In this document: in pieces, positions 8,849 to 64,000 of the stretch
Numbering within the stretch: the stretch's first letter is position 1
Layout: each line of letters starts with the position of its first letter
Virus record (IMG/VR): IMGVR_UViG_3300034102_002082
Span: 32,001-96,000 of that record
Origin: a virus
Reading direction: 5' to 3' (one strand)
DNA: 64,000 nucleotides
The notes under the pieces: model-generated
Told to the model about the DNA's origin: nothing
Seen by the model: the letters and a program-made list of their open reading frames with translations, nothing else
The model's database searches: none
Made by a program: the position numbers and the translations under genes

Positions 8849-9928
8849 TTAATAACTCATATGTGTATGTCCACCATCTTGTTTAATCACCGTTAAACCA
8901 TTCTTTTTAAAGGTATTTATCAGCAATGGATTGACGACATCAATCTTTAATTTAATCTTTGAATTGTAGCCATTCTTTAGTGATTTATAATCATCTAACC
9001 CAAGCTTTACTAACTTATCACCTAGTCCTTTATTTCTGTGTTCTGGTTTGACGATTAGATCAAATGAGAATTCTTCTCCCTTACTTGAGTTCTGTAATTC
9101 TGTATATAAAGCTCCGAGAACTTCACCATCTTCAACTAATACAACATTTAATTCTTTCCCTCTAAGAATTGATATTCCAGAAGACTTTTCTAGCTCGTTT
9201 ATTTGCTCCCAAAAATCCGGTATATCTTCCCCGTCATCTGACTGTAATTGCCCATCTTGAATATACTTTGTTTCTATTTCTTCAGTCAATGCCAATTCCG
9301 GTGAATGAACCGGTGAATTTGCATACGGAGGAGTCTCGACTGGTTCTTCTTTCTGTTCTTTGCTTCCACCCTTATCTATCAATTTCTTAACGTCTTTAGC
9401 TAACTCGTAGAAACTACCGTTTGGTAATATATATTGGTCAAATGTGCTATTCTTTCCACCTAATTGACCAATCTGTTCCTCATCAGTTTCATATAAACCA
9501 GATGGTCCTTTTTTTACGTCCGATTGATATACTTGTATTATCCCCGTTAATGGTTTTGATGTATCGACTGGTAACTTTTTTATAGCATCGGTATGACTCT
9601 TTAGGTTCTTGCCGTGTGCATAATCATTAAAGTCACTAGATACTGGCTTATCATTCCAGTTTATTATGTTGAACTTTATTTTATAATATGATGCTTTGTA
9701 ATAAAAAGTGAAGAATCCAAGAATTGATGTGATCGATTTTTTCGGAACTCTATGGTCGGTAGCTATTCCAATTGATGTGTATGATATATCTGGTTCAAAT
9801 ACGTTCCCGATCTGATCATCATCTAGATCTAAAGCAAGCTTGAAAGCGGAATATATCGAAGACTGTAAAGAGTTGGGTGGAATAACCACTTCATTCAGAA
9901 TATGTGAGTAAAAATCCTTATAATTCAT
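8849..9928 (-). CDS. YKDFY-leader protein: unknown domain plus C-terminal GNAT acetyltransferase
   Basis: MNYKDFYSHILNE leader; GNAT motif A in FDLIVKPEHRNKGLGDKL; NPLLINTFKKNG. Confidence 0.75.
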   Translation of the reverse strand: MNYKDFYSHILNEVVIPPNSLQSSIYSAFKLALDLDDDQIGNVFEPDISYTSIGIATDHRVPKKSITSILGFFTFYYKASYYKIKFNIINWNDKPVSSDFNDYAHGKNLKSHTDAIKKLPVDTSKPLTGIIQVYQSDVKKGPSGLYETDEEQIGQLGGKNSTFDQYILPNGSFYELAKDVKKLIDKGGSKEQKEEPVETPPYANSPVHSPELALTEEIETKYIQDGQLQSDDGEDIPDFWEQINELEKSSGISILRGKELNVVLVEDGEVLGALYTELQNSSKGEEFSFDLIVKPEHRNKGLGDKLVKLGLDDYKSLKNGYNSKIKLKIDVVNPLLINTFKKNGLTVIKQDGGHTHMSY

Positions 9929-31627: not shown

Positions 31628-33229
31628 ATGTCAAATGTAAAATCACTATTAACAGACACATTCAATCCACAAGCTCGTCTTATGGCTGAAACTCGCGGTC
31701 TTCGTCAGAAATGGGAAAAAACTGGTCTTCTAGAAGGAATCACCAGCGAAACCGAACAAGGACACATGTCCATCCTTCTTGAAAATCAGGCTAAACAGCT
31801 GATTGAAGAAGCTACCCGTACCGGAACTTCCGCTAACTCAGAACAATGGGCTGGCGTTGCTCTCCCACTAGTTCGTCGTGTATTCGCCGAAATCGCTGCT
31901 AAGGAATTCGTTTCCGTTCAGCCAATGAATCTACCATCTGGTCTTATTTTCTATTTGGACTTCAAATACGGATCTAATATAGCTGGTAAGCCATCATTCC
32001 AAGACAATTCACTATTCGGTGGAACTAAAGCCAAGAACGGTTCAACCGATTCTGCTGTTAACGGTCTATATGGTCAAGGTCGTTTTGGTTATACCATCAA
32101 TGATCAATCAACAACCGTCGCTCAGACAACCGCAAGCGTAGCCTTCTTCGATGTAAATTTCGTTGATGCTCTATCAGCTTCTGTTTCTGTAGACGGTCTA
32201 CGTAAGGTCACTGTTGACTTATCATCAACCTCATTCGATTCACTAGCTGTTCGTGGCTTCACCGTATCTGGTTCTGGTATTCAAGACTTCTACCCAGCCT
32301 TCACAAAGGCCAATGGTAATCTCGTTACCTTCATCACCTCCGGTTCAACACAAACAGGAAACGTTCTCGTTGGTTACACCGTTCAGCCATCCGATCAAAC
32401 TCGTGGCGACTTCGAAGATCGCGGTACCGCTGTCTCCGACTCAACCACTGGTCTATCTGCTGATATCGGTATCCCAGAAGTTAACTTGGATCTGAAATCA
32501 GAACCAATCGTCGCTAAGACCCGTAAGTTGAAGGCTGTTTGGACACCAGAATTGGCTCAGGACTTGAACGCTTACCACTCAATCGATGCAGAAGCCGAGC
32601 TAACCGCTCTTCTATCTGAATACGTTTCGATGGAAATCGATCTAGAAATCCTAGACATGTTAGTTACCGCTGCACCAACAGTAACCACTGAATATTGGTC
32701 AGCTGCTATCGGAAGAGAATATAACCCAACAACTGGTCAATTCGCCGATACCGCTTCAAATCGTACAGCATATGTAAAGAGCACATGGTTCCAGACTCTT
32801 GGTAACAAGATTCAGAAGGTTTCCAACAAGATTCACCAGTTGACTCTTCGTGGTGGTGCTAACTTCCTAGTATGTTCACCAGATGTCGCTACAATCATCG
32901 AATCAATACCAGGATTCACCACCAACACTGATGGTGACCAGGCTAAATTCGCAATGGGTGTTGCTAAAGTTGGTGCCCTAGCAAATCGTTGGACCGTATA
33001 CAAGAACCCATACATGACCGATAACGTTATGTTGGTAGGTTTCCGTGGAAATAACTTCCTCGAAACCGGCGCAGTTTACGCCCCATATATTCCTCTGATC
33101 CAGACTCCATTGGTCTATGATCCAGTGAACTTTACACCACGCCGTGGCGTAATGACTCGCTATGCCAAGAAGATGGTAAGGCCAGAGTTTTACGGAAAAA
33201 TAATAATTGGAGATTTGAATCAAGTTTAA
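31628..33229 (+). CDS. gp23: Major capsid protein
   Basis: LPLVRR, VQPMNLPSGLIF, KTRKLKAVWTPELAQDLNAYH, YAPYIPL, GVMTRY. Confidence 0.97.
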   Translation: MSNVKSLLTDTFNPQARLMAETRGLRQKWEKTGLLEGITSETEQGHMSILLENQAKQLIEEATRTGTSANSEQWAGVALPLVRRVFAEIAAKEFVSVQPMNLPSGLIFYLDFKYGSNIAGKPSFQDNSLFGGTKAKNGSTDSAVNGLYGQGRFGYTINDQSTTVAQTTASVAFFDVNFVDALSASVSVDGLRKVTVDLSSTSFDSLAVRGFTVSGSGIQDFYPAFTKANGNLVTFITSGSTQTGNVLVGYTVQPSDQTRGDFEDRGTAVSDSTTGLSADIGIPEVNLDLKSEPIVAKTRKLKAVWTPELAQDLNAYHSIDAEAELTALLSEYVSMEIDLEILDMLVTAAPTVTTEYWSAAIGREYNPTTGQFADTASNRTAYVKSTWFQTLGNKIQKVSNKIHQLTLRGGANFLVCSPDVATIIESIPGFTTNTDGDQAKFAMGVAKVGALANRWTVYKNPYMTDNVMLVGFRGNNFLETGAVYAPYIPLIQTPLVYDPVNFTPRRGVMTRYAKKMVRPEFYGKIIIGDLNQV

Positions 33230-57751: not shown

Positions 57752-58723
57752 CTATCGTGATATGTCAAGTGTATTTTTGATTTCTGTTGCGTACCATCCC
57801 TTTGATGGTCCACGCAAAACTCTTCTTCCTACTTTTCCGGCATTTGTCAATAATGTTGGGTGCTTTATTCCTCTCGATTTACAAAATTCAACTAAATTAC
57901 CATCAACAAAATACACATTGTCGTTGTTATCTACTATTTTCCATTTTTTTGCTTTTGGGTTTTTGCTTCCCTTAAATCTACCCAATTCCTTTAATTTATT
58001 TGATATATGAATTTTTTCTTCGGTTGTACATTTTCTTCCAAGAGTCGGGTGACCATTTTTAGCAAATGCTTCTCGTAACTTTCTTTTATGTTCCTCCGAA
58101 GAATTTCGTTTTATGATTTTATTTGTGTGTTCCGCTCTCTCTGCTTCCGATAATGTTGCATACCAGTTCTTTACTTTCTCAGAATGTAACTTTTTTTGTT
58201 CATCTGTCCACTTTTTTCCAAACATTGCATTTTTATCTCCGATATGGGATAGTCTTTGTAATTCTAGATGTTCCGGTGTTCGTTTATAATAATGTGCTGG
58301 ATGTAGTTCCCCTTTTAGTCCGTACATACTATTTTTTTCTCCTGATGTGTCTGGTCTAAAGTCCCCACCATCTGTTAGATTAGTTAACGGACCCATATTT
58401 AAATCTCGTCTTCCTATTTTCGATATAAGCTCAATCTCTATACGTTTTGACTCATCTACTGTCAAATTCTCGTGGATTTTTATTATTATCGGATCGACGC
58501 CATATGAAAGGATGCTTTTTATTCTATAGAACTTATGAAAGTTTCCTGTTCTTATTGATTTTTTTCTCTGTGCTTCTACTAGATGGTCTTTATATCTATT
58601 TCTTTTTCCTATACCAACATAAAATGGCTCATATTGGTATTTTAAATCTTGATATTCGAAATTTCCTGTTTTTGTCGGATCGAAATAAATATAAACGTAA
58701 TTGATATTGTCATTAATTGTCAT
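57752..58723 (-). CDS. GIY-YIG-superfamily homing endonuclease with NUMOD3-like repeats
   Basis: YVYIYFDP...FYVGIGK..RY..H, EIELI, LTNLTDGG, GEKNSMYG repeats. Confidence 0.85.
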   Translation of the reverse strand: MTINDNINYVYIYFDPTKTGNFEYQDLKYQYEPFYVGIGKRNRYKDHLVEAQRKKSIRTGNFHKFYRIKSILSYGVDPIIIKIHENLTVDESKRIEIELISKIGRRDLNMGPLTNLTDGGDFRPDTSGEKNSMYGLKGELHPAHYYKRTPEHLELQRLSHIGDKNAMFGKKWTDEQKKLHSEKVKNWYATLSEAERAEHTNKIIKRNSSEEHKRKLREAFAKNGHPTLGRKCTTEEKIHISNKLKELGRFKGSKNPKAKKWKIVDNNDNVYFVDGNLVEFCKSRGIKHPTLLTNAGKVGRRVLRGPSKGWYATEIKNTLDISR

Positions 58724-59208: not shown

Positions 59209-59236
59209 ACGTTACCAGTAAAAGTAAAATTGTCAA
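59209..59236 (-). promoter_or_regulatory. Sigma70-like promoter TTGACA-N16-TAACGT
   Basis: -35 overlaps the vWA gene stop; -10 ends 6 nt before the Nudix ATG. Confidence 0.55.
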
Positions 59237-61011
59237 GAAACTTTTTTATTCCGCAATATTTTGTTGGTGATTGTTTTCGAAACTGTTATAATTTCTTTAA
59301 CGTCTATGAAATTAGAATCCTTCCCATACATCATAGAAAAAGCTAGTCTTTCTGCATTATCTTCCCCTATATAATAACACAACGAGAGTAAATTCTTATC
59401 TCGTTGCATTCTGGTAAAATATTGTTTCGTCTTTGCTATTGCTTGTGCTCCACAAAAATTAATTCCAGTTTTTTGGAAATATGGCATACCATCAGAAAAA
59501 TTTATAAAAATAGAATCTAATTCGTGATTTGATTCCGGTATTACCGATGATATTAATGGGAATAATAATCCTTCGGGTGTACCCCCACCTGGATGTAATA
59601 GAGGGAATAAAGAGTAAACTTTATTGAACTTGTCTTTTCTACTATCGTATGCGATAACTAAACACGGATAATTATCATCCCTCTTTATCGTGGTTCTAAA
59701 ACTAATTACGACTTCTACATTTTCCGTTACCGATGTTGCTTTCGCTATCGCTACCGCACATATGATTGAATTTTTCCATTTCCCATAATCATTTTCACTC
59801 ATAGATCCACTGGCGTCTATTGATATATGGATATGACATTTTTTGTAAGATTCTGTTTTTGATCTGGTGAATATCCTATCATTCCCAGTTCCGACAGAAA
59901 ATAACAACCTCTTATCTATTTTTCCGGATACCTGTCTATTGGTCAATGTTTTATTGATTTCCCCTCGTATTTTCCATTTGCTTGCCAATATTTTTCCCAA
60001 AACTATTCCGCTATTAACGGATTCTATTCCTATGTTTCCTTTCGAGAAACTAGAATATTTTGCGATAGGCAAATCCAATGATGATAAATTTCCAGCATTT
60101 ATATTTTTTATTAGTATGCATTTTATGTCATTTTCTAATTTAAATTCATCTGAATATTTCGATTCCTTTTGTTGTGGTTCTTTATCTGTTGGTTGTTTAT
60201 CTTCTCCATCTTCTAGTTTTTCGTAATTACCCTCGACCCATTCTTCACACTTATTTAGTATATCGCCACTATCTCCACCATTACTTTTAGATTCAGATTC
60301 TATTTTTTCTATATTTCGTAATAGTATCAATAATATATTTTTGGCTACGTCCAAACGATCTATCGGTTTTATTAGTCTATTTATATTATCCAAATCCAAT
60401 TCATTGTAAATTTCTTCTAGCCCATTCAACGCGGATAAGTCGGTAGATTTGTTGGTTAGATTTATTATTCTGAACATGTATGAATCTATCGATTCATCAC
60501 GGAATTCGTTTGAACTTAGTGTCATTCCTATTTTTTTATTATTCCAGAATCTGTTATATAAATCTACGTAATATCCTCGATATCCTATAAACTTATCATA
60601 CGCCCAATTATCTATAAACCTATCTTCAACATAATTCAGTAATTTTTTATATATCTTAGAAATTTCCCCAATATCTATTTTCTTCTCTTTTGCTATTTGT
60701 GATGCTTCTTTTGGTATTTTCATCCATAAGGTCTTGAATATATCAAAATTCGTATGGAGAATATGACAAGATTCATGTAAGATTATACCTACTGTAGAAT
60801 CCAAACTATCAACACTAAAATCCTCGTCTATCCATATACTTTTACCATCAGTATAATTTTTCTCTCCCTTGAATTGGACGGGTATTTCTTTTTCCGTTAT
60901 TATCTTTACGAAGTTTTTTATCGCTGATCGATATAGTTCTCTACGATTTTCAATGGGTATATCTTCATTAAATATCTCATCACTTATCCAGAAATTTGTT
61001 TCCGAATTCAT
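59233..61011 (-). CDS. CobT-like HExxH plus vWA protein (partner of a MoxR AAA+ ATPase)
   Basis: ILHESCH and NYVEDRFI; MIDAS DASGS, GGTPE, FSDG. Confidence 0.85.
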   Translation of the reverse strand: MNSETNFWISDEIFNEDIPIENRRELYRSAIKNFVKIITEKEIPVQFKGEKNYTDGKSIWIDEDFSVDSLDSTVGIILHESCHILHTNFDIFKTLWMKIPKEASQIAKEKKIDIGEISKIYKKLLNYVEDRFIDNWAYDKFIGYRGYYVDLYNRFWNNKKIGMTLSSNEFRDESIDSYMFRIINLTNKSTDLSALNGLEEIYNELDLDNINRLIKPIDRLDVAKNILLILLRNIEKIESESKSNGGDSGDILNKCEEWVEGNYEKLEDGEDKQPTDKEPQQKESKYSDEFKLENDIKCILIKNINAGNLSSLDLPIAKYSSFSKGNIGIESVNSGIVLGKILASKWKIRGEINKTLTNRQVSGKIDKRLLFSVGTGNDRIFTRSKTESYKKCHIHISIDASGSMSENDYGKWKNSIICAVAIAKATSVTENVEVVISFRTTIKRDDNYPCLVIAYDSRKDKFNKVYSLFPLLHPGGGTPEGLLFPLISSVIPESNHELDSIFINFSDGMPYFQKTGINFCGAQAIAKTKQYFTRMQRDKNLLSLCYYIGEDNAERLAFSMMYGKDSNFIDVKEIITVSKTITNKILRNKKVS

Positions 61012-61012
61012 T

Positions 61013-61750
61013 TTAAAATAACTTTTTAGGTAACTTTTTTCCGCTTACATATTTCTGACAAAGTTGTTTTATAAAAGTTCTTTCGCTAGTATCACCACCA
61101 TCACCCGAGAAAGTTGAATAAACTACGTTTTCCAATACTTCACTCACAGAGAATCCATCGTCTAACATCTCACCCATTTCTACGGATGTTCTCGTTGATA
61201 TGTAGCTAGTTATTCTAGAGTCTGGTTTTTTAAATTCTGCGCGTATTTCATAGCTAATTTGTGATATGCATTTTATATCTTCTTTATCTAAATCGGGATA
61301 TTTAGAGAATAGTAAATCATACTCTTCTTCAGCATCCAAGGTTTCAATCTCAATCTTTACTGGAAATCTATCCATTAATGCTCTATCCATTATTCTGGTA
61401 GATGTGTATTCAGTTCCTATATTCGCCGTACTGATAAATGATACACCTTCAGCTACTTTTACCAATTCGGAATCTTCCTTTTCATCCAATCGAACGCATC
61501 TTTGGATTGGATCTAGTATAGGAAGAATTATATTCCAACCATCTGGATGGCATCTGCTCAATTCATCAAGCAATATTACTGCTCCTTCTGTTCGTATAGC
61601 CCGTATGAATGCAGACTCGTTAAATAGGGTTCCTTGGTCTTTAACAAGGTGAGTGTTACCAATCAGTACCGATCTAGGGTCTTGAGTACTTCCTAAGTTT
61701 ACACACATTAGATTTTTTTTTATTTTATATCGTATTTTAAATTTTTTCAT
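61013..61750 (-). CDS. MoxR/CbbQ-type AAA+ ATPase, C-terminal fragment
   Basis: NLGSTQDPR, Walker B ILLDELSR, STANIG, DRALMDRF; no Walker A; start MKKFKIRY. Confidence 0.85.
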   Translation of the reverse strand: MKKFKIRYKIKKNLMCVNLGSTQDPRSVLIGNTHLVKDQGTLFNESAFIRAIRTEGAVILLDELSRCHPDGWNIILPILDPIQRCVRLDEKEDSELVKVAEGVSFISTANIGTEYTSTRIMDRALMDRFPVKIEIETLDAEEEYDLLFSKYPDLDKEDIKCISQISYEIRAEFKKPDSRITSYISTRTSVEMGEMLDDGFSVSEVLENVVYSTFSGDGGDTSERTFIKQLCQKYVSGKKLPKKLF

Positions 61751-61768
61751 TATATTTATATAAATATA
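61751..61768. promoter_or_regulatory. 18-bp perfect palindrome giving the late motif on both strands
   Basis: TATATTTATATAAATATA between divergent ATGs at 61750 (-) and 61783 (+). Confidence 0.55.
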
Positions 61769-61782
61769 GACTAGGAACGAAA

Positions 61783-62532
61783 ATGACACAATATATTATT
61801 TACGCTTTATTAGATACCTCTAGACCTATTAATTTGACGTTAGGTGAATTCATATTTGATTATGTTCCTATCTACATAGGAAGAGGAATTAGATTATCTA
61901 GACCATACACACATATTAGACGAGCATTAAATGGTGATACGAGAACAAAAATTAGAGCAAAGGTAAAGCAATTGGTAGACAGTGGTGTGGAAGTAAGACC
62001 CGTGTGTTTAAAAACCCAATTAAATAAAAAAGCCGCAGATGATATTGAAGTTGACTTAATATTTAAACTTAAAAGAGTAAATGAAGGTGGTACTTTATAT
62101 AACGTATGTGACGGTGGGGATGGTGGTGACACATTTACAAATAATATAAATAAAGAAGAGATTAGAAAGAAACTTATGGGGAGAATGCCATGGAACAAGG
62201 GACTGACAAAAAATACAGACGACGTTGTTCGTTCCGTATCAATAAAGAATAAGAATAATTTAATAAATGGGAATCTGGTTGCGCCATCGTTTAAGGGAAG
62301 AAAACATTCACAAGAAACAATAGATAAGTTGAGTAATATGCGAATTGGTGTAAAATTAGGAAAATATAAACCACGAGTAAGTCTTAAGAAATATATTTTA
62401 ACATCTCCCACTGGAGAGACTATAATATCAAATGGACAAAAAGAATTTTATAATTTACTTACTAATATGAATTTAAGTATATATAAATTAAAACTTGGTA
62501 AGCATGTCGGTTGGACATTAACTACCAACTAA
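61783..62532 (+). CDS. GIY-YIG-superfamily homing endonuclease inserted antisense in the AAA+ gene
   Basis: YIIYALLD...IYIGRG..RP..H, LYNVCDGGDGG, PWNKG, GRKHSQETI. Confidence 0.85.
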   Translation: MTQYIIYALLDTSRPINLTLGEFIFDYVPIYIGRGIRLSRPYTHIRRALNGDTRTKIRAKVKQLVDSGVEVRPVCLKTQLNKKAADDIEVDLIFKLKRVNEGGTLYNVCDGGDGGDTFTNNINKEEIRKKLMGRMPWNKGLTKNTDDVVRSVSIKNKNNLINGNLVAPSFKGRKHSQETIDKLSNMRIGVKLGKYKPRVSLKKYILTSPTGETIISNGQKEFYNLLTNMNLSIYKLKLGKHVGWTLTTN

Positions 62533-62777
62533 ATTTCTGTTTCTTCTATTATTTCTATCGATTTATCTAATTTCATTTTCATAAGTTCATCTTCAGTAAC
62601 TATCTTCTCGTGAATTATATTACTGATAGCTTCCGCCGCTTTTATCGCTGCTAATGTTTTTCCAGATCCACTCATCCCATATAATAATACATTTTTTCCT
62701 TTATTGATTGCCCAAATAAGGTATTTCCAGTGTGCCTCATTTATTTTTAGATCTTTTGGTATCGGTGGAATTTTCAT
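62529..62777 (-). CDS. MoxR/CbbQ-type AAA+ ATPase, N-terminal fragment
   Basis: WKYLIW, Walker A NVLLYGMSGSGKT, then an acidic tail and a stop overlapping the endonuclease stop. Confidence 0.85.
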   Translation of the reverse strand: MKIPPIPKDLKINEAHWKYLIWAINKGKNVLLYGMSGSGKTLAAIKAAEAISNIIHEKIVTEDELMKMKLDKSIEIIEETEI

Positions 62778-62794
62778 ATATAGTGTATAAATAT

Positions 62795-62822
62795 AAAACC
62801 CGCTCCTTTTGAGAGCGGGTTT
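62795..62822. terminator. Intrinsic terminator-like hairpin
   Basis: AAACCCGCTC-7nt-GAGCGGGTTT. Confidence 0.7.
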
Positions 62823-62842
62823 CTTTTTGTTTGGTTTATATG

Positions 62843-63087
62843 TTATTTAAATATTGAATCTAACGTGTTTATAAAATCTAAAATATCATTCTTAAATTGA
62901 TTTTCTCTGGTCTTGTCAACTTCTAATTCGTCTAGATAATTCTTTAGCATTGGCGATACTGTTTCCTTATTAAACTTTAACATGTATGGAACATATTGTT
63001 TATACTTTTGGTGTGATTTATATGATATGATCTTTTTATTTAGATAATCTAGTAATTGATTAACTGATTTTCATCTTCTAGTAACAT
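62843..63087 (-). pseudogene. Frameshifted small gene (or sequencing error)
   Basis: ATG 63087 frame stops after 12 codons; another frame is open for about 75 codons to TAA 62843. Confidence 0.45.
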
Positions 63088-63088
63088 A

Positions 63089-64000
63089 TTAAATGTGTCC
63101 CTTACTTTTCGCATATTCTTTCATTTCTTTTGTTATATCTCTACCTCTCTGCATTATTTTATCCATTTCATTGCCTCTACTATCCTCATTTATTCTCGAA
63201 TTGAAACGACGCATCGGTTTATTTTTTGTCTCATTTTCTAGAGTATCATCAATTTTTCTTAATTGTTTTTCTGTGAGTTCAATTATCGGATTTACTGTTT
63301 CAATATCATCCTTTATTATTGGGTACCACTTATCCTGTATTTTTACGTTTATATTATGTACTTCGAAACCAAATTCTTTTTGTGTACCAAATGCATGGTC
63401 AAAAGAATCATTCGTTATTTCTCCGTCTCCATTATATTCGATTTCATATTCATCGAACGTTGGAAATACTAATTTTAATTTGTCTACTTGTTCGTCTGTT
63501 AATTCTATGTATTTTTGATTATTTGCTTCGTTGATCTCTTTTTTAGTATCAACACCACCGTCTGTAGAATTACCGGATGATGGATTTCCATATTTTTCTT
63601 CTAGATCTTCATACATCATTTTAGCGAAGTCATCATCTTCTGTTTCTATTCCGCGAGATAGTCTGGATGGTTTATATGGAGAACTACTTAAAACTGAATA
63701 TAAGTTACTTGCTTGGCCGTTATAATAATGAGTAGCAAACCAGTATATAGCGACCTCTGCGGAATCTTGTTCGTATCCGAGTCCAGCATATCTCGCCTTT
63801 AAGAATTTCACCATTTCTTCTTTTGTCGGATCATCTATTCTCCATGATGATTCTTTGATGTTTTTATTCTCACCAAATCCAGCAAACGGAGAATTTTTAA
63901 GTTCCAATGCAGATTTTATTGCTGAATTTATATCCGAGAAGTAAAGTGTTTTTGCTCGTTCGTCGTTAATTCGTTCATTATCAAAAAACTGCTCTACTGC
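63089..64000 (-). CDS. Hypothetical multi-segment protein, 5'-truncated by the window edge
   Basis: Frame stays open from 64000 to the stop at 63089; segments separated by IKE/INE motifs. Confidence 0.75.
   Translation of the reverse strand, partial: AVEQFFDNERINDERAKTLYFSDINSAIKSALELKNSPFAGFGENKNIKESSWRIDDPTKEEMVKFLKARYAGLGYEQDSAEVAIYWFATHYYNGQASNLYSVLSSSPYKPSRLSRGIETEDDDFAKMMYEDLEEKYGNPSSGNSTDGGVDTKKEINEANNQKYIELTDEQVDKLKLVFPTFDEYEIEYNGDGEITNDSFDHAFGTQKEFGFEVHNINVKIQDKWYPIIKDDIETVNPIIELTEKQLRKIDDTLENETKNKPMRRFNSRINEDSRGNEMDKIMQRGRDITKEMKEYAKSKGHI

Follow-up and report, generated by a model that had tools for sequence, protein, structure and literature searches.

We describe a phage gene for a predicted MoxR/NorQ-like AAA+ ATPase that has been divided by a short cassette carrying a homing endonuclease gene of the GIY-YIG type. 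The gene lies in a stretch of 64,000 nucleotides (hereafter the window), positions 32,001 to 96,000 of the IMG/VR virus record IMGVR_UViG_3300034102_002082, which derives from an uncultured lake phage and comprises 129,856 bases (CheckV completeness 57). An initial annotation, made from the letters of the window, had placed Walker A in an N-terminal half-gene (N-half) and Walker B, sensor and arginine residues in a C-terminal half-gene (C-half), with an endonuclease on the opposite strand between them. The open reading frames (ORFs) are as described there, down to the overlapping stop codons of the N-half and the endonuclease (Table 1). On balance, we favor the reading that the homing-endonuclease cassette made this a gene in pieces that probably still works as two chains.

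The most direct evidence for an insertion comes from an empty allele. A 1,157-base metagenome contig (L025) carries the ATPase gene uninterrupted, encoding 288 aa, and served as the reference for the junctions. The downstream part of its gene is 97.4% identical to the window at the DNA level (736/756 bases). Codons 1–51 of the N-half in the window correspond to codons 1–51 of L025, and the C-half from codon 19 onward corresponds to L025 from codon 62 onward. The intervening codons 52–61 of L025 (GKKDKFFSFA, 30 nt), which encode a loop and strand beta2, are swapped in the window for 928 nt. Filled and empty alleles were sampled from habitats of one kind, so the exact codons at the junctions are known. 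Further unsplit proteins of 288 aa (P0003, P0004 and P0127) were found at 88–99% identity. Among more distant relatives the uninterrupted form is again the rule: the ATPase occupies a single frame in 22/22 of the first relatives retrieved (2 phage records and 20 IMG/VR loci, 27–63% identity), and the best 120 C-half matches listed are all unsplit proteins of 276–425 aa, none of them (0/120) at split length. As had been supposed for MoxR proteins, the loop at the site of the cut is short; Walker A and the LG..D(P/A)R block are 18 or 20 residues apart in 48/48 unsplit relatives, and the joined insertion is absent from the homologues. The extensions at the new ends of the two halves are therefore not a feature of the family. 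A DNA similarity search against 50,697 phage records returned nothing, and IMG/VR held no close relatives of the N-half or of the endonuclease.

Outside the endonuclease ORF the cassette amounts to 93 + 86 nt, serving as coding sequence or putative promoter. It provides the tail and stop codon of the N-half as well as the start codon and head of the C-half. Its GC content is 0.29, compared with 0.35 for the window, and falls to 0.24 in the part encoding the N-half tail and 0.15 in the part encoding the C-half head. The tail, described at the outset as an acidic extension of about 31 residues, holds 9 acidic and 4 basic residues (net charge −5, isoelectric point (pI) 4.5) and is absent from L025. 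When the letters of the tail are shuffled, the frame remains open in 2.3% of trials, and random sequences at window composition remain open in 9.5%; the frame is open in the three split alleles (the window, P0002 and P0124). Across these alleles both ends of the tail are invariant, and the middle varies (M/E/R, K/R and L/S). The coding strand of the tail is 52% A, favoring Lys, Glu, Ile and Asn. The initial annotation had suggested a search for the peptide beside endonucleases in other split genes. As a query on its own, the tail matched no protein outside its own cluster in a set of 1.84 billion representatives, and phage genomes gave no match at E ≤ 10. An origin of the tail as the stolen C-terminus of another gene found no support in these peptide searches, for which a 31-aa query is weak. 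The C-half head, described initially as a gained basic extension, has to be divided. Residues 1–10 are clearly new and carry a net charge of +5. Residues 11–18 (KKNLMCVN) resemble the original; they match the loop end and beta2 of the relatives in length and hydrophobic pattern (KKDKFFKLN in P0003), for which reason we read them as a strongly diverged original strand or a substitute for it.

The cassette also carries a perfect 18-nt palindrome, absent from L025, in which the motif ATATTTATA can be read on either strand. The window as a whole has 15 copies of this 9-mer (expected, 4.35), a count reached in 0/100 shuffles. Its 8-mer form, ATATTTAT, lies within 40 nt upstream of 14/65 ORF starts, where 0.75 would be expected, and at 12 of these 14 ORFs it stands 4–13 nt ahead of the ATG. 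Examples across the window are 2410, 8849–9928 (−), 37176, 39931 and 57752–58723 (−). At the divided gene, the end of ATATTTAT is 9 nt from the ATG of the N-half, 9 nt from that of the C-half and 23 nt from that of the endonuclease; ATATTTATA ends 8 nt ahead of the ATG of each half-gene, in keeping with the motif first noticed at both and labeled late in the initial annotation. Given this spacing at the C-half and the endonuclease, the cassette appears to equip both its own gene and the cut-off C-half with a start signal. Two other possibilities for these starts were considered. An internal start of the C-half at Met15, which would drop the basic head, was rated less likely because the motif stands 9 nt from the first ATG, just as in the N-half and within the 4–13 nt range. 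Nor was there support for a hairpin that would mask the start of the endonuclease, of the kind found at mobE or I-TevI (−2.5 kcal/mol, z = 0.23). Shine-Dalgarno-like sequences are mostly absent upstream of starts in the window. Together with the placement of the motif, this scarcity suggests near-leaderless transcripts of a late type and a host that does not rely on Shine-Dalgarno pairing.

The product of the middle ORF matches PHROG 314, annotated as homing endonuclease, at 8.8e-8; its match to the Pfam family LEM-3_GIY-YIG is below threshold (18.4 bits, cut-off 27). In an alignment with 8 relatives, Y7, Y31, G33, R40, H44, E89 and N107 are invariant, which we take to be the GIY-YIG catalytic set. 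A second intact copy of equal length (P0128, 249 aa) is 83% identical to that of the window and is presumed to pair with the split allele P0002, since the ENA contig that carries it matches that of P0002 in stated length. Related endonucleases were collected from 65 loci, of which 35 were examined and 30 with only short motif-level matches were left out; among the 35, the choice of nuclease ORF looks wrong in two (L033 and L084). Those examined are ordinary, co-oriented intergenic genes, and in 0/35 loci is the endonuclease antisense to both neighbors, so the nuclease family is not generally tied to antisense splits. For example, in a set of large IMG/VR phages (L026–L032, L049 and L062) the GIY-YIG gene lies co-oriented between a gene for 490–524 aa and one for 327–384 aa. 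The window itself holds a second GIY-YIG gene nearby (57752–58723, −), intergenic and 28% identical to the endonuclease at 61783–62532.

The C-half passes the Pfam threshold for AAA_5 (35.5 bits, cut-off 22) and matches phrog_249 at 3.4e-21; the PHROG label 'porphyrin biosynthesis' is a family annotation and no more. P-loop matches of the N-half in Pfam are all below threshold. Features of the MoxR class are present, namely AAA_5, Walker A and B, sensor 1, the helix-2 insert and the pre-sensor-1 hairpin. An AlphaFold2 (AF2) model of the unsplit L025 protein reached a predicted local distance difference test score (pLDDT) of 87.2, with beta1 at 30–34, alpha1 at 40–50 and beta2 at 57–61, and it resembles NorQ (template modeling scores 0.79/0.89) and CbbQ. 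By this model, the split gene is a MoxR/NorQ-like AAA+ ATPase, cut between helix alpha1 and strand beta2. In AAA+ topology beta1 is the central strand. CobS proper was excluded, TIGR01650 scoring 12.9–15.7 bits against a cut-off of 558.55. A homologue in Microcystis phage Mel-JY01 (L001:3023-4705) has 560 aa, with about 270 extra N-terminal residues ahead of the AAA+ domain.

The gene after the C-half had been taken for an intact von Willebrand factor A (VWA) partner. Its 592-aa ORF is indeed intact, and its product is 37% identical (E 1e-112) to that of the gene after the unsplit ATPase in locus L002; the VWA identity depends on DASGS, read directly, and on a Pfam VWA match that occurs only in the L002 homologue, below threshold (E 0.016). 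The partner also contains HESCH, which aligns with HEGSH of the L002 homologue and precedes DASGS; Pfam detects neither domain in the partner. From these motifs it looks like a zincin-VWA protein rather than a plain VWA partner. The locus shares with the NorQ-NorD and CbbQ-CbbO pairs the model fold, AAA_5 and a following gene whose product has a motif resembling a metal ion-dependent adhesion site (MIDAS). It differs from them in being phage-borne and in the additional HExxH of the partner.

The divergence between filled and empty alleles is uneven. In the N-half core (N-core, codons 1–51), 29/51 codons differ from L025 (23 synonymous, 6 non-synonymous). Of the 227 codons of the C-half core (C-core), 20 differ from L025 (19 synonymous, 1 non-synonymous), and 8 of these differences fall in the 20 codons nearest the cassette. 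The N-core of the window is nearest to P0004 (48/51) and its C-core to L025 and P0127 (226/227), and in P0002 and P0124, the other split N-halves, the same tail follows an N-core that resembles that of L025 (49/51, counted by eye). Since both extensions lie within the inserted DNA, they travel with the endonuclease gene, as the initial annotation had surmised; the tail occurs in three alleles and on two backgrounds. The filled/empty polymorphism, the two gene backgrounds and the divergence gradients in the flanks are what homing with co-conversion would be expected to produce, an empty allele being cleaved and then repaired from a filled one. Contig pieces identical to the window were found in four further lake water metagenome runs (2024–2025, different studies). 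They bridge the C-junction in two runs (X2 and X5), the N-junction in one (X4) and the boundary between endonuclease and tail in another (X3). Neither a variant split allele nor a joint across the cassette was found among the contigs of the four runs.

If the divided gene is functional, the ATPase would now be made as two chains, and the 51-residue N-core (beta1, P-loop, alpha1) would insert into the C-half and rebuild the ATP site. The oppositely charged ends derived from the cassette would probably aid the encounter of the chains or their solubility, as in NrdA of phage Aeh1, and a dedicated clasp would not be required of them. In line with this reading, the two halves together retain 59/59 of the residues that do not vary among 48 relatives. 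Between P0002 and P0124 there are 0/51 changes in the N-core and 3/31 in the tail (Fisher p = 0.051), for which reason the core still looks constrained. Several points weigh against a working pair of chains. Leaving the central beta-strand on a chain of 82 aa is a severe cut, and unaided assembly may therefore fail. Modeled alone, the N-half had low confidence in AF2 (pLDDT 58), with a helix at 62–70, a short strand at 74–76 and block-mean pLDDT of 53–71 over the tail as far as residue 80 and 39 for the last two residues. The charge of the tail is partly a composition effect, and the non-conservative substitutions within it (M/E/R at one position, L/S at a second) count in the same direction. 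Three N-half alleles are known and a single C-half allele. Finally, repeated homing into intact alleles could keep the halves healthy-looking even though the gene is dead.

That last point is central to the strongest alternative, in which the gene was inactivated by the insertion, the function of the ATPase/VWA pair is accessory, rehoming of the cassette renews the halves, and tail and head are by-products. We regard this as a possible explanation, although the less likely one. The coexistence of unsplit alleles at 88–99% protein identity, the presence of the cassette on two backgrounds and the severing of the P-loop and central strand from the remaining fold all agree with it, as does the rarity of the split form among the best C-half matches listed. 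The faster change of the tail than of the core is also as this alternative would have it, yet the same comparison of split alleles found no change in the N-core, and the tail has remained open in three alleles where random sequence of its composition would do so in 2.3% of cases. Death of the gene is harder to reconcile with a cassette that brings a correctly spaced motif and ATG for the C-half, with an identical split allele in runs of 2020–2025, or with a partner gene that is still intact.

An interpretation that we consider unlikely is the one proposed at first, namely that the acidic tail and basic head fold into a selected clasp, required for rejoining the halves and portable with the cassette. 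The net charges are opposite and equal (−5 in the tail, +5 in the new part of the head), but only 10 new residues in the head face 31 in the tail. The tail start and the head end must adjoin, because both replace one short loop. Both tail ends are invariant in the three alleles, and the tail has diverged at 2/31 positions compared with 43/249 for the endonuclease of the same two alleles (endonuclease pairing presumed); one tail position, on the other hand, tolerates M, E or R, a charge reversal included. The tail has no relatives beyond its own cluster in either search, and the related endonucleases are not tied to antisense-split genes (0/35 loci). The modeled tail of the N-half is of low confidence (pLDDT 53–71). 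The precedent itself points both ways, as the tails of Aeh1 NrdA are essential for activity yet dispensable for joining the halves (Crona et al. 2010, PMC3045599). We are equally doubtful of a more elaborate 'cut-and-mend' module, in which an antisense GIY-YIG gene, a two-way promoter, a substitute beta2 and a selected tail/head pair would together guide the P-loop fragment back into the AAA+ fold.

Rejoining of the halves in RNA or in protein, through a group I or group II intron, a split intein or translational bypass, is what an endonuclease inside a gene would call to mind from intron and intein homing, and fractured genes with split inteins and an intervening nuclease gene are known (Dassa et al. 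2009, PMC2677866), but it is highly improbable here: stops separate the halves, which do not share a frame, the insert is filled by an endonuclease ORF on the other strand, and a Hint fold needs more than 31 + 18 residues. A scan of 60500–63500 with Rfam at E ≤ 1 gave no intron family; its six weak matches, to leader or small RNA families, all fall on the terminator hairpin (about 62733–62863). The Pfam search of the ORFs gave no intein or Hint domain, and reading the sequence ahead of the C-core did not find a His-Asn followed by Cys, Ser or Thr. The absence of intein and intron noted initially is thus upheld by both databases. Translation past the N-half stop into the antisense frame was likewise ruled out: it would meet more stops, and the frame of the C-half is a different one.

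The closest known system is NrdA of phage Aeh1. The gene is split by mobE, and the tails that arose from the mobE insertion are essential for the split enzyme (Crona et al. 2010, PMC3045599). They are AT-rich, have no database matches and are oppositely charged (pI 10.4 and 3.8), and they are unnecessary for the a/b heterodimer and needed for its dimerization (PMC3045599). The nrdA-a/mobE/nrdA-b locus and the present one thus have in common insert-derived, AT-rich tails of opposite charge without database relatives, the lack of splicing and a gene that is continuous in close relatives. They differ in several respects. The nuclease is of the GIY-YIG type here and of the HNH type in Aeh1, and it is antisense here, whereas mobE is co-oriented. 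The polarity is reversed, with an acidic tail and basic head here and basic followed by acidic in Aeh1. The gene cut here is that of an AAA+ ATPase, interrupted after alpha1 by a cassette with a two-way promoter-like palindrome. Finally, the tails are proven essential in Aeh1, whereas their role here is putative. The initial annotation had cited mobE as antisense in nrdA. This was mistaken, because mobE lies in the same operon in the same orientation and overlaps nrdA-b (PMC3045599). Its proposal of a new type of gene-splitting element also finds no support, charged tails derived from an insertion having been published for Aeh1 NrdA (PMC3045599).

Other fractured genes show related arrangements. 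Crona et al. cite the charged tail-like extensions of T4 gp39/gp60, propose a general mechanism and predict tails on other fragmented genes (PMC3045599), and further genes split by endonucleases include a GIY-YIG case in gene 43 of phage 25 (Edgell et al. 2010, PMC2988022; Dassa et al. 2009, PMC2677866). Gene 39/mobA/gene 60 of T4 and gene 43A/seg43(25)/43B of Aeromonas phage 25 share with the present locus an enzyme gene in two translated pieces and an endonuclease gene between them. The nuclease of phage 25 (seg) is also of the GIY-YIG type, and whether it caused that split is unclear. The host genes are other ones, and T4 gene 60 additionally needs translational bypass. Genes fractured by split inteins (PMC2677866) similarly show ordered halves at one locus, a free-standing nuclease between them and ends of complementary charge. 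In contrast to those, no Hint motifs are present here and the extensions are far too short. Among the literature listings searched, we found no report of a MoxR- or CobS-like gene split by a homing endonuclease. New elements are the identity of the split gene, the antisense placement of the nuclease and an apparent start signal that, as a palindrome, faces both ways; the underlying principle has been published.

Coordinates of the features are collected in Table 1. The two-way terminator-like hairpin upstream of the N-half could terminate transcripts of the endonuclease on the + strand as well.

Table 1. Features of the divided ATPase locus, in window coordinates.
Feature	Position	Strand	Remarks
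Two-way terminator-like hairpin upstream of N-half motif and ATG	62795–62823	both	Conserved in L025
Native copy of ATATTTATA preceding the N-half ATG	62786–62794	−	Present ahead of the intact L025 gene too
N-half ORF, Walker A GSGKT	62529–62777	−	82 aa
N-half core, codons 1–51: helix alpha0, strand beta1, Walker A (GSGKT), helix alpha1	62625–62777	−	Codon-for-codon match to L025 codons 1–51
Acidic tail of N-half, cassette-borne, 31 aa, SNIIHEKIVTEDELMKMKLDKSIEIIEETEI	62532–62624	−	Without counterpart in L025
N-half stop TAG	62529–62531	−	Overlaps endonuclease stop TAA 62530–62532 (+)
Whole inserted cassette, 928 nt, in place of 30 nt (codons 52–61)	61697–62624	both	Comparison with L025
Free-standing GIY-YIG-type homing endonuclease gene, 249 aa, antisense to ATPase gene	61783–62532	+	PHROG 314, invariant residues
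Perfect 18-nt palindrome, motif ATATTTATA on both strands	61751–61768	both	ATATTTATA at 61752–61760 (+) and 61759–61767 (−)
C-half ORF	61013–61750	−	245 aa counted from ATG at 61750
C-half head, cassette side, 18 aa, MKKFKIRYKIKKNLMCVN	61697–61750	−	L025 has GKKDKFFSFA instead
C-half core: Walker B (LLDE), sensor 1 (TAN), arginines, lid domain	61013–61696	−	Pfam AAA_5
Intact partner gene, 592 aa, HExxH (HESCH) and MIDAS-like DASGS	59233–61011	−	NorD/CobT-like by position

Two further observations concern the surroundings of these features. An open frame of 179 aa (61872–62411, −) runs antisense through the endonuclease gene, in the frame of the N-half with two stops between; the codons of the endonuclease on the sense strand most likely account for it. 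Between the stop of the upstream gene and the hairpin, the window has about 240 nt more than L025, holding an ORF of 46 aa (62843–62983, −). This difference is another insertion or deletion between near-identical phages.

In summary, the locus is a clean natural example of an enzyme gene broken up by a homing endonuclease gene, of which few are known. Crona et al. predicted that other fragmented genes would also carry charged, tail-like sequences, and the present locus bears this out. The layout is a variant one, with an antisense nuclease and a palindromic promoter-like site for both the nuclease and the downstream half, and it opens no new class of element. A 'cut-and-mend' module, if real, would be without natural precedent as an AAA+ module made of two chains and joined by peptides from a mobile element, and would offer a transferable pair of tags with which to split proteins. 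If the two chains do work, an AAA+ domain would tolerate having its central strand and P-loop on a separate chain of 82 residues, which would be of some use for split-protein design.

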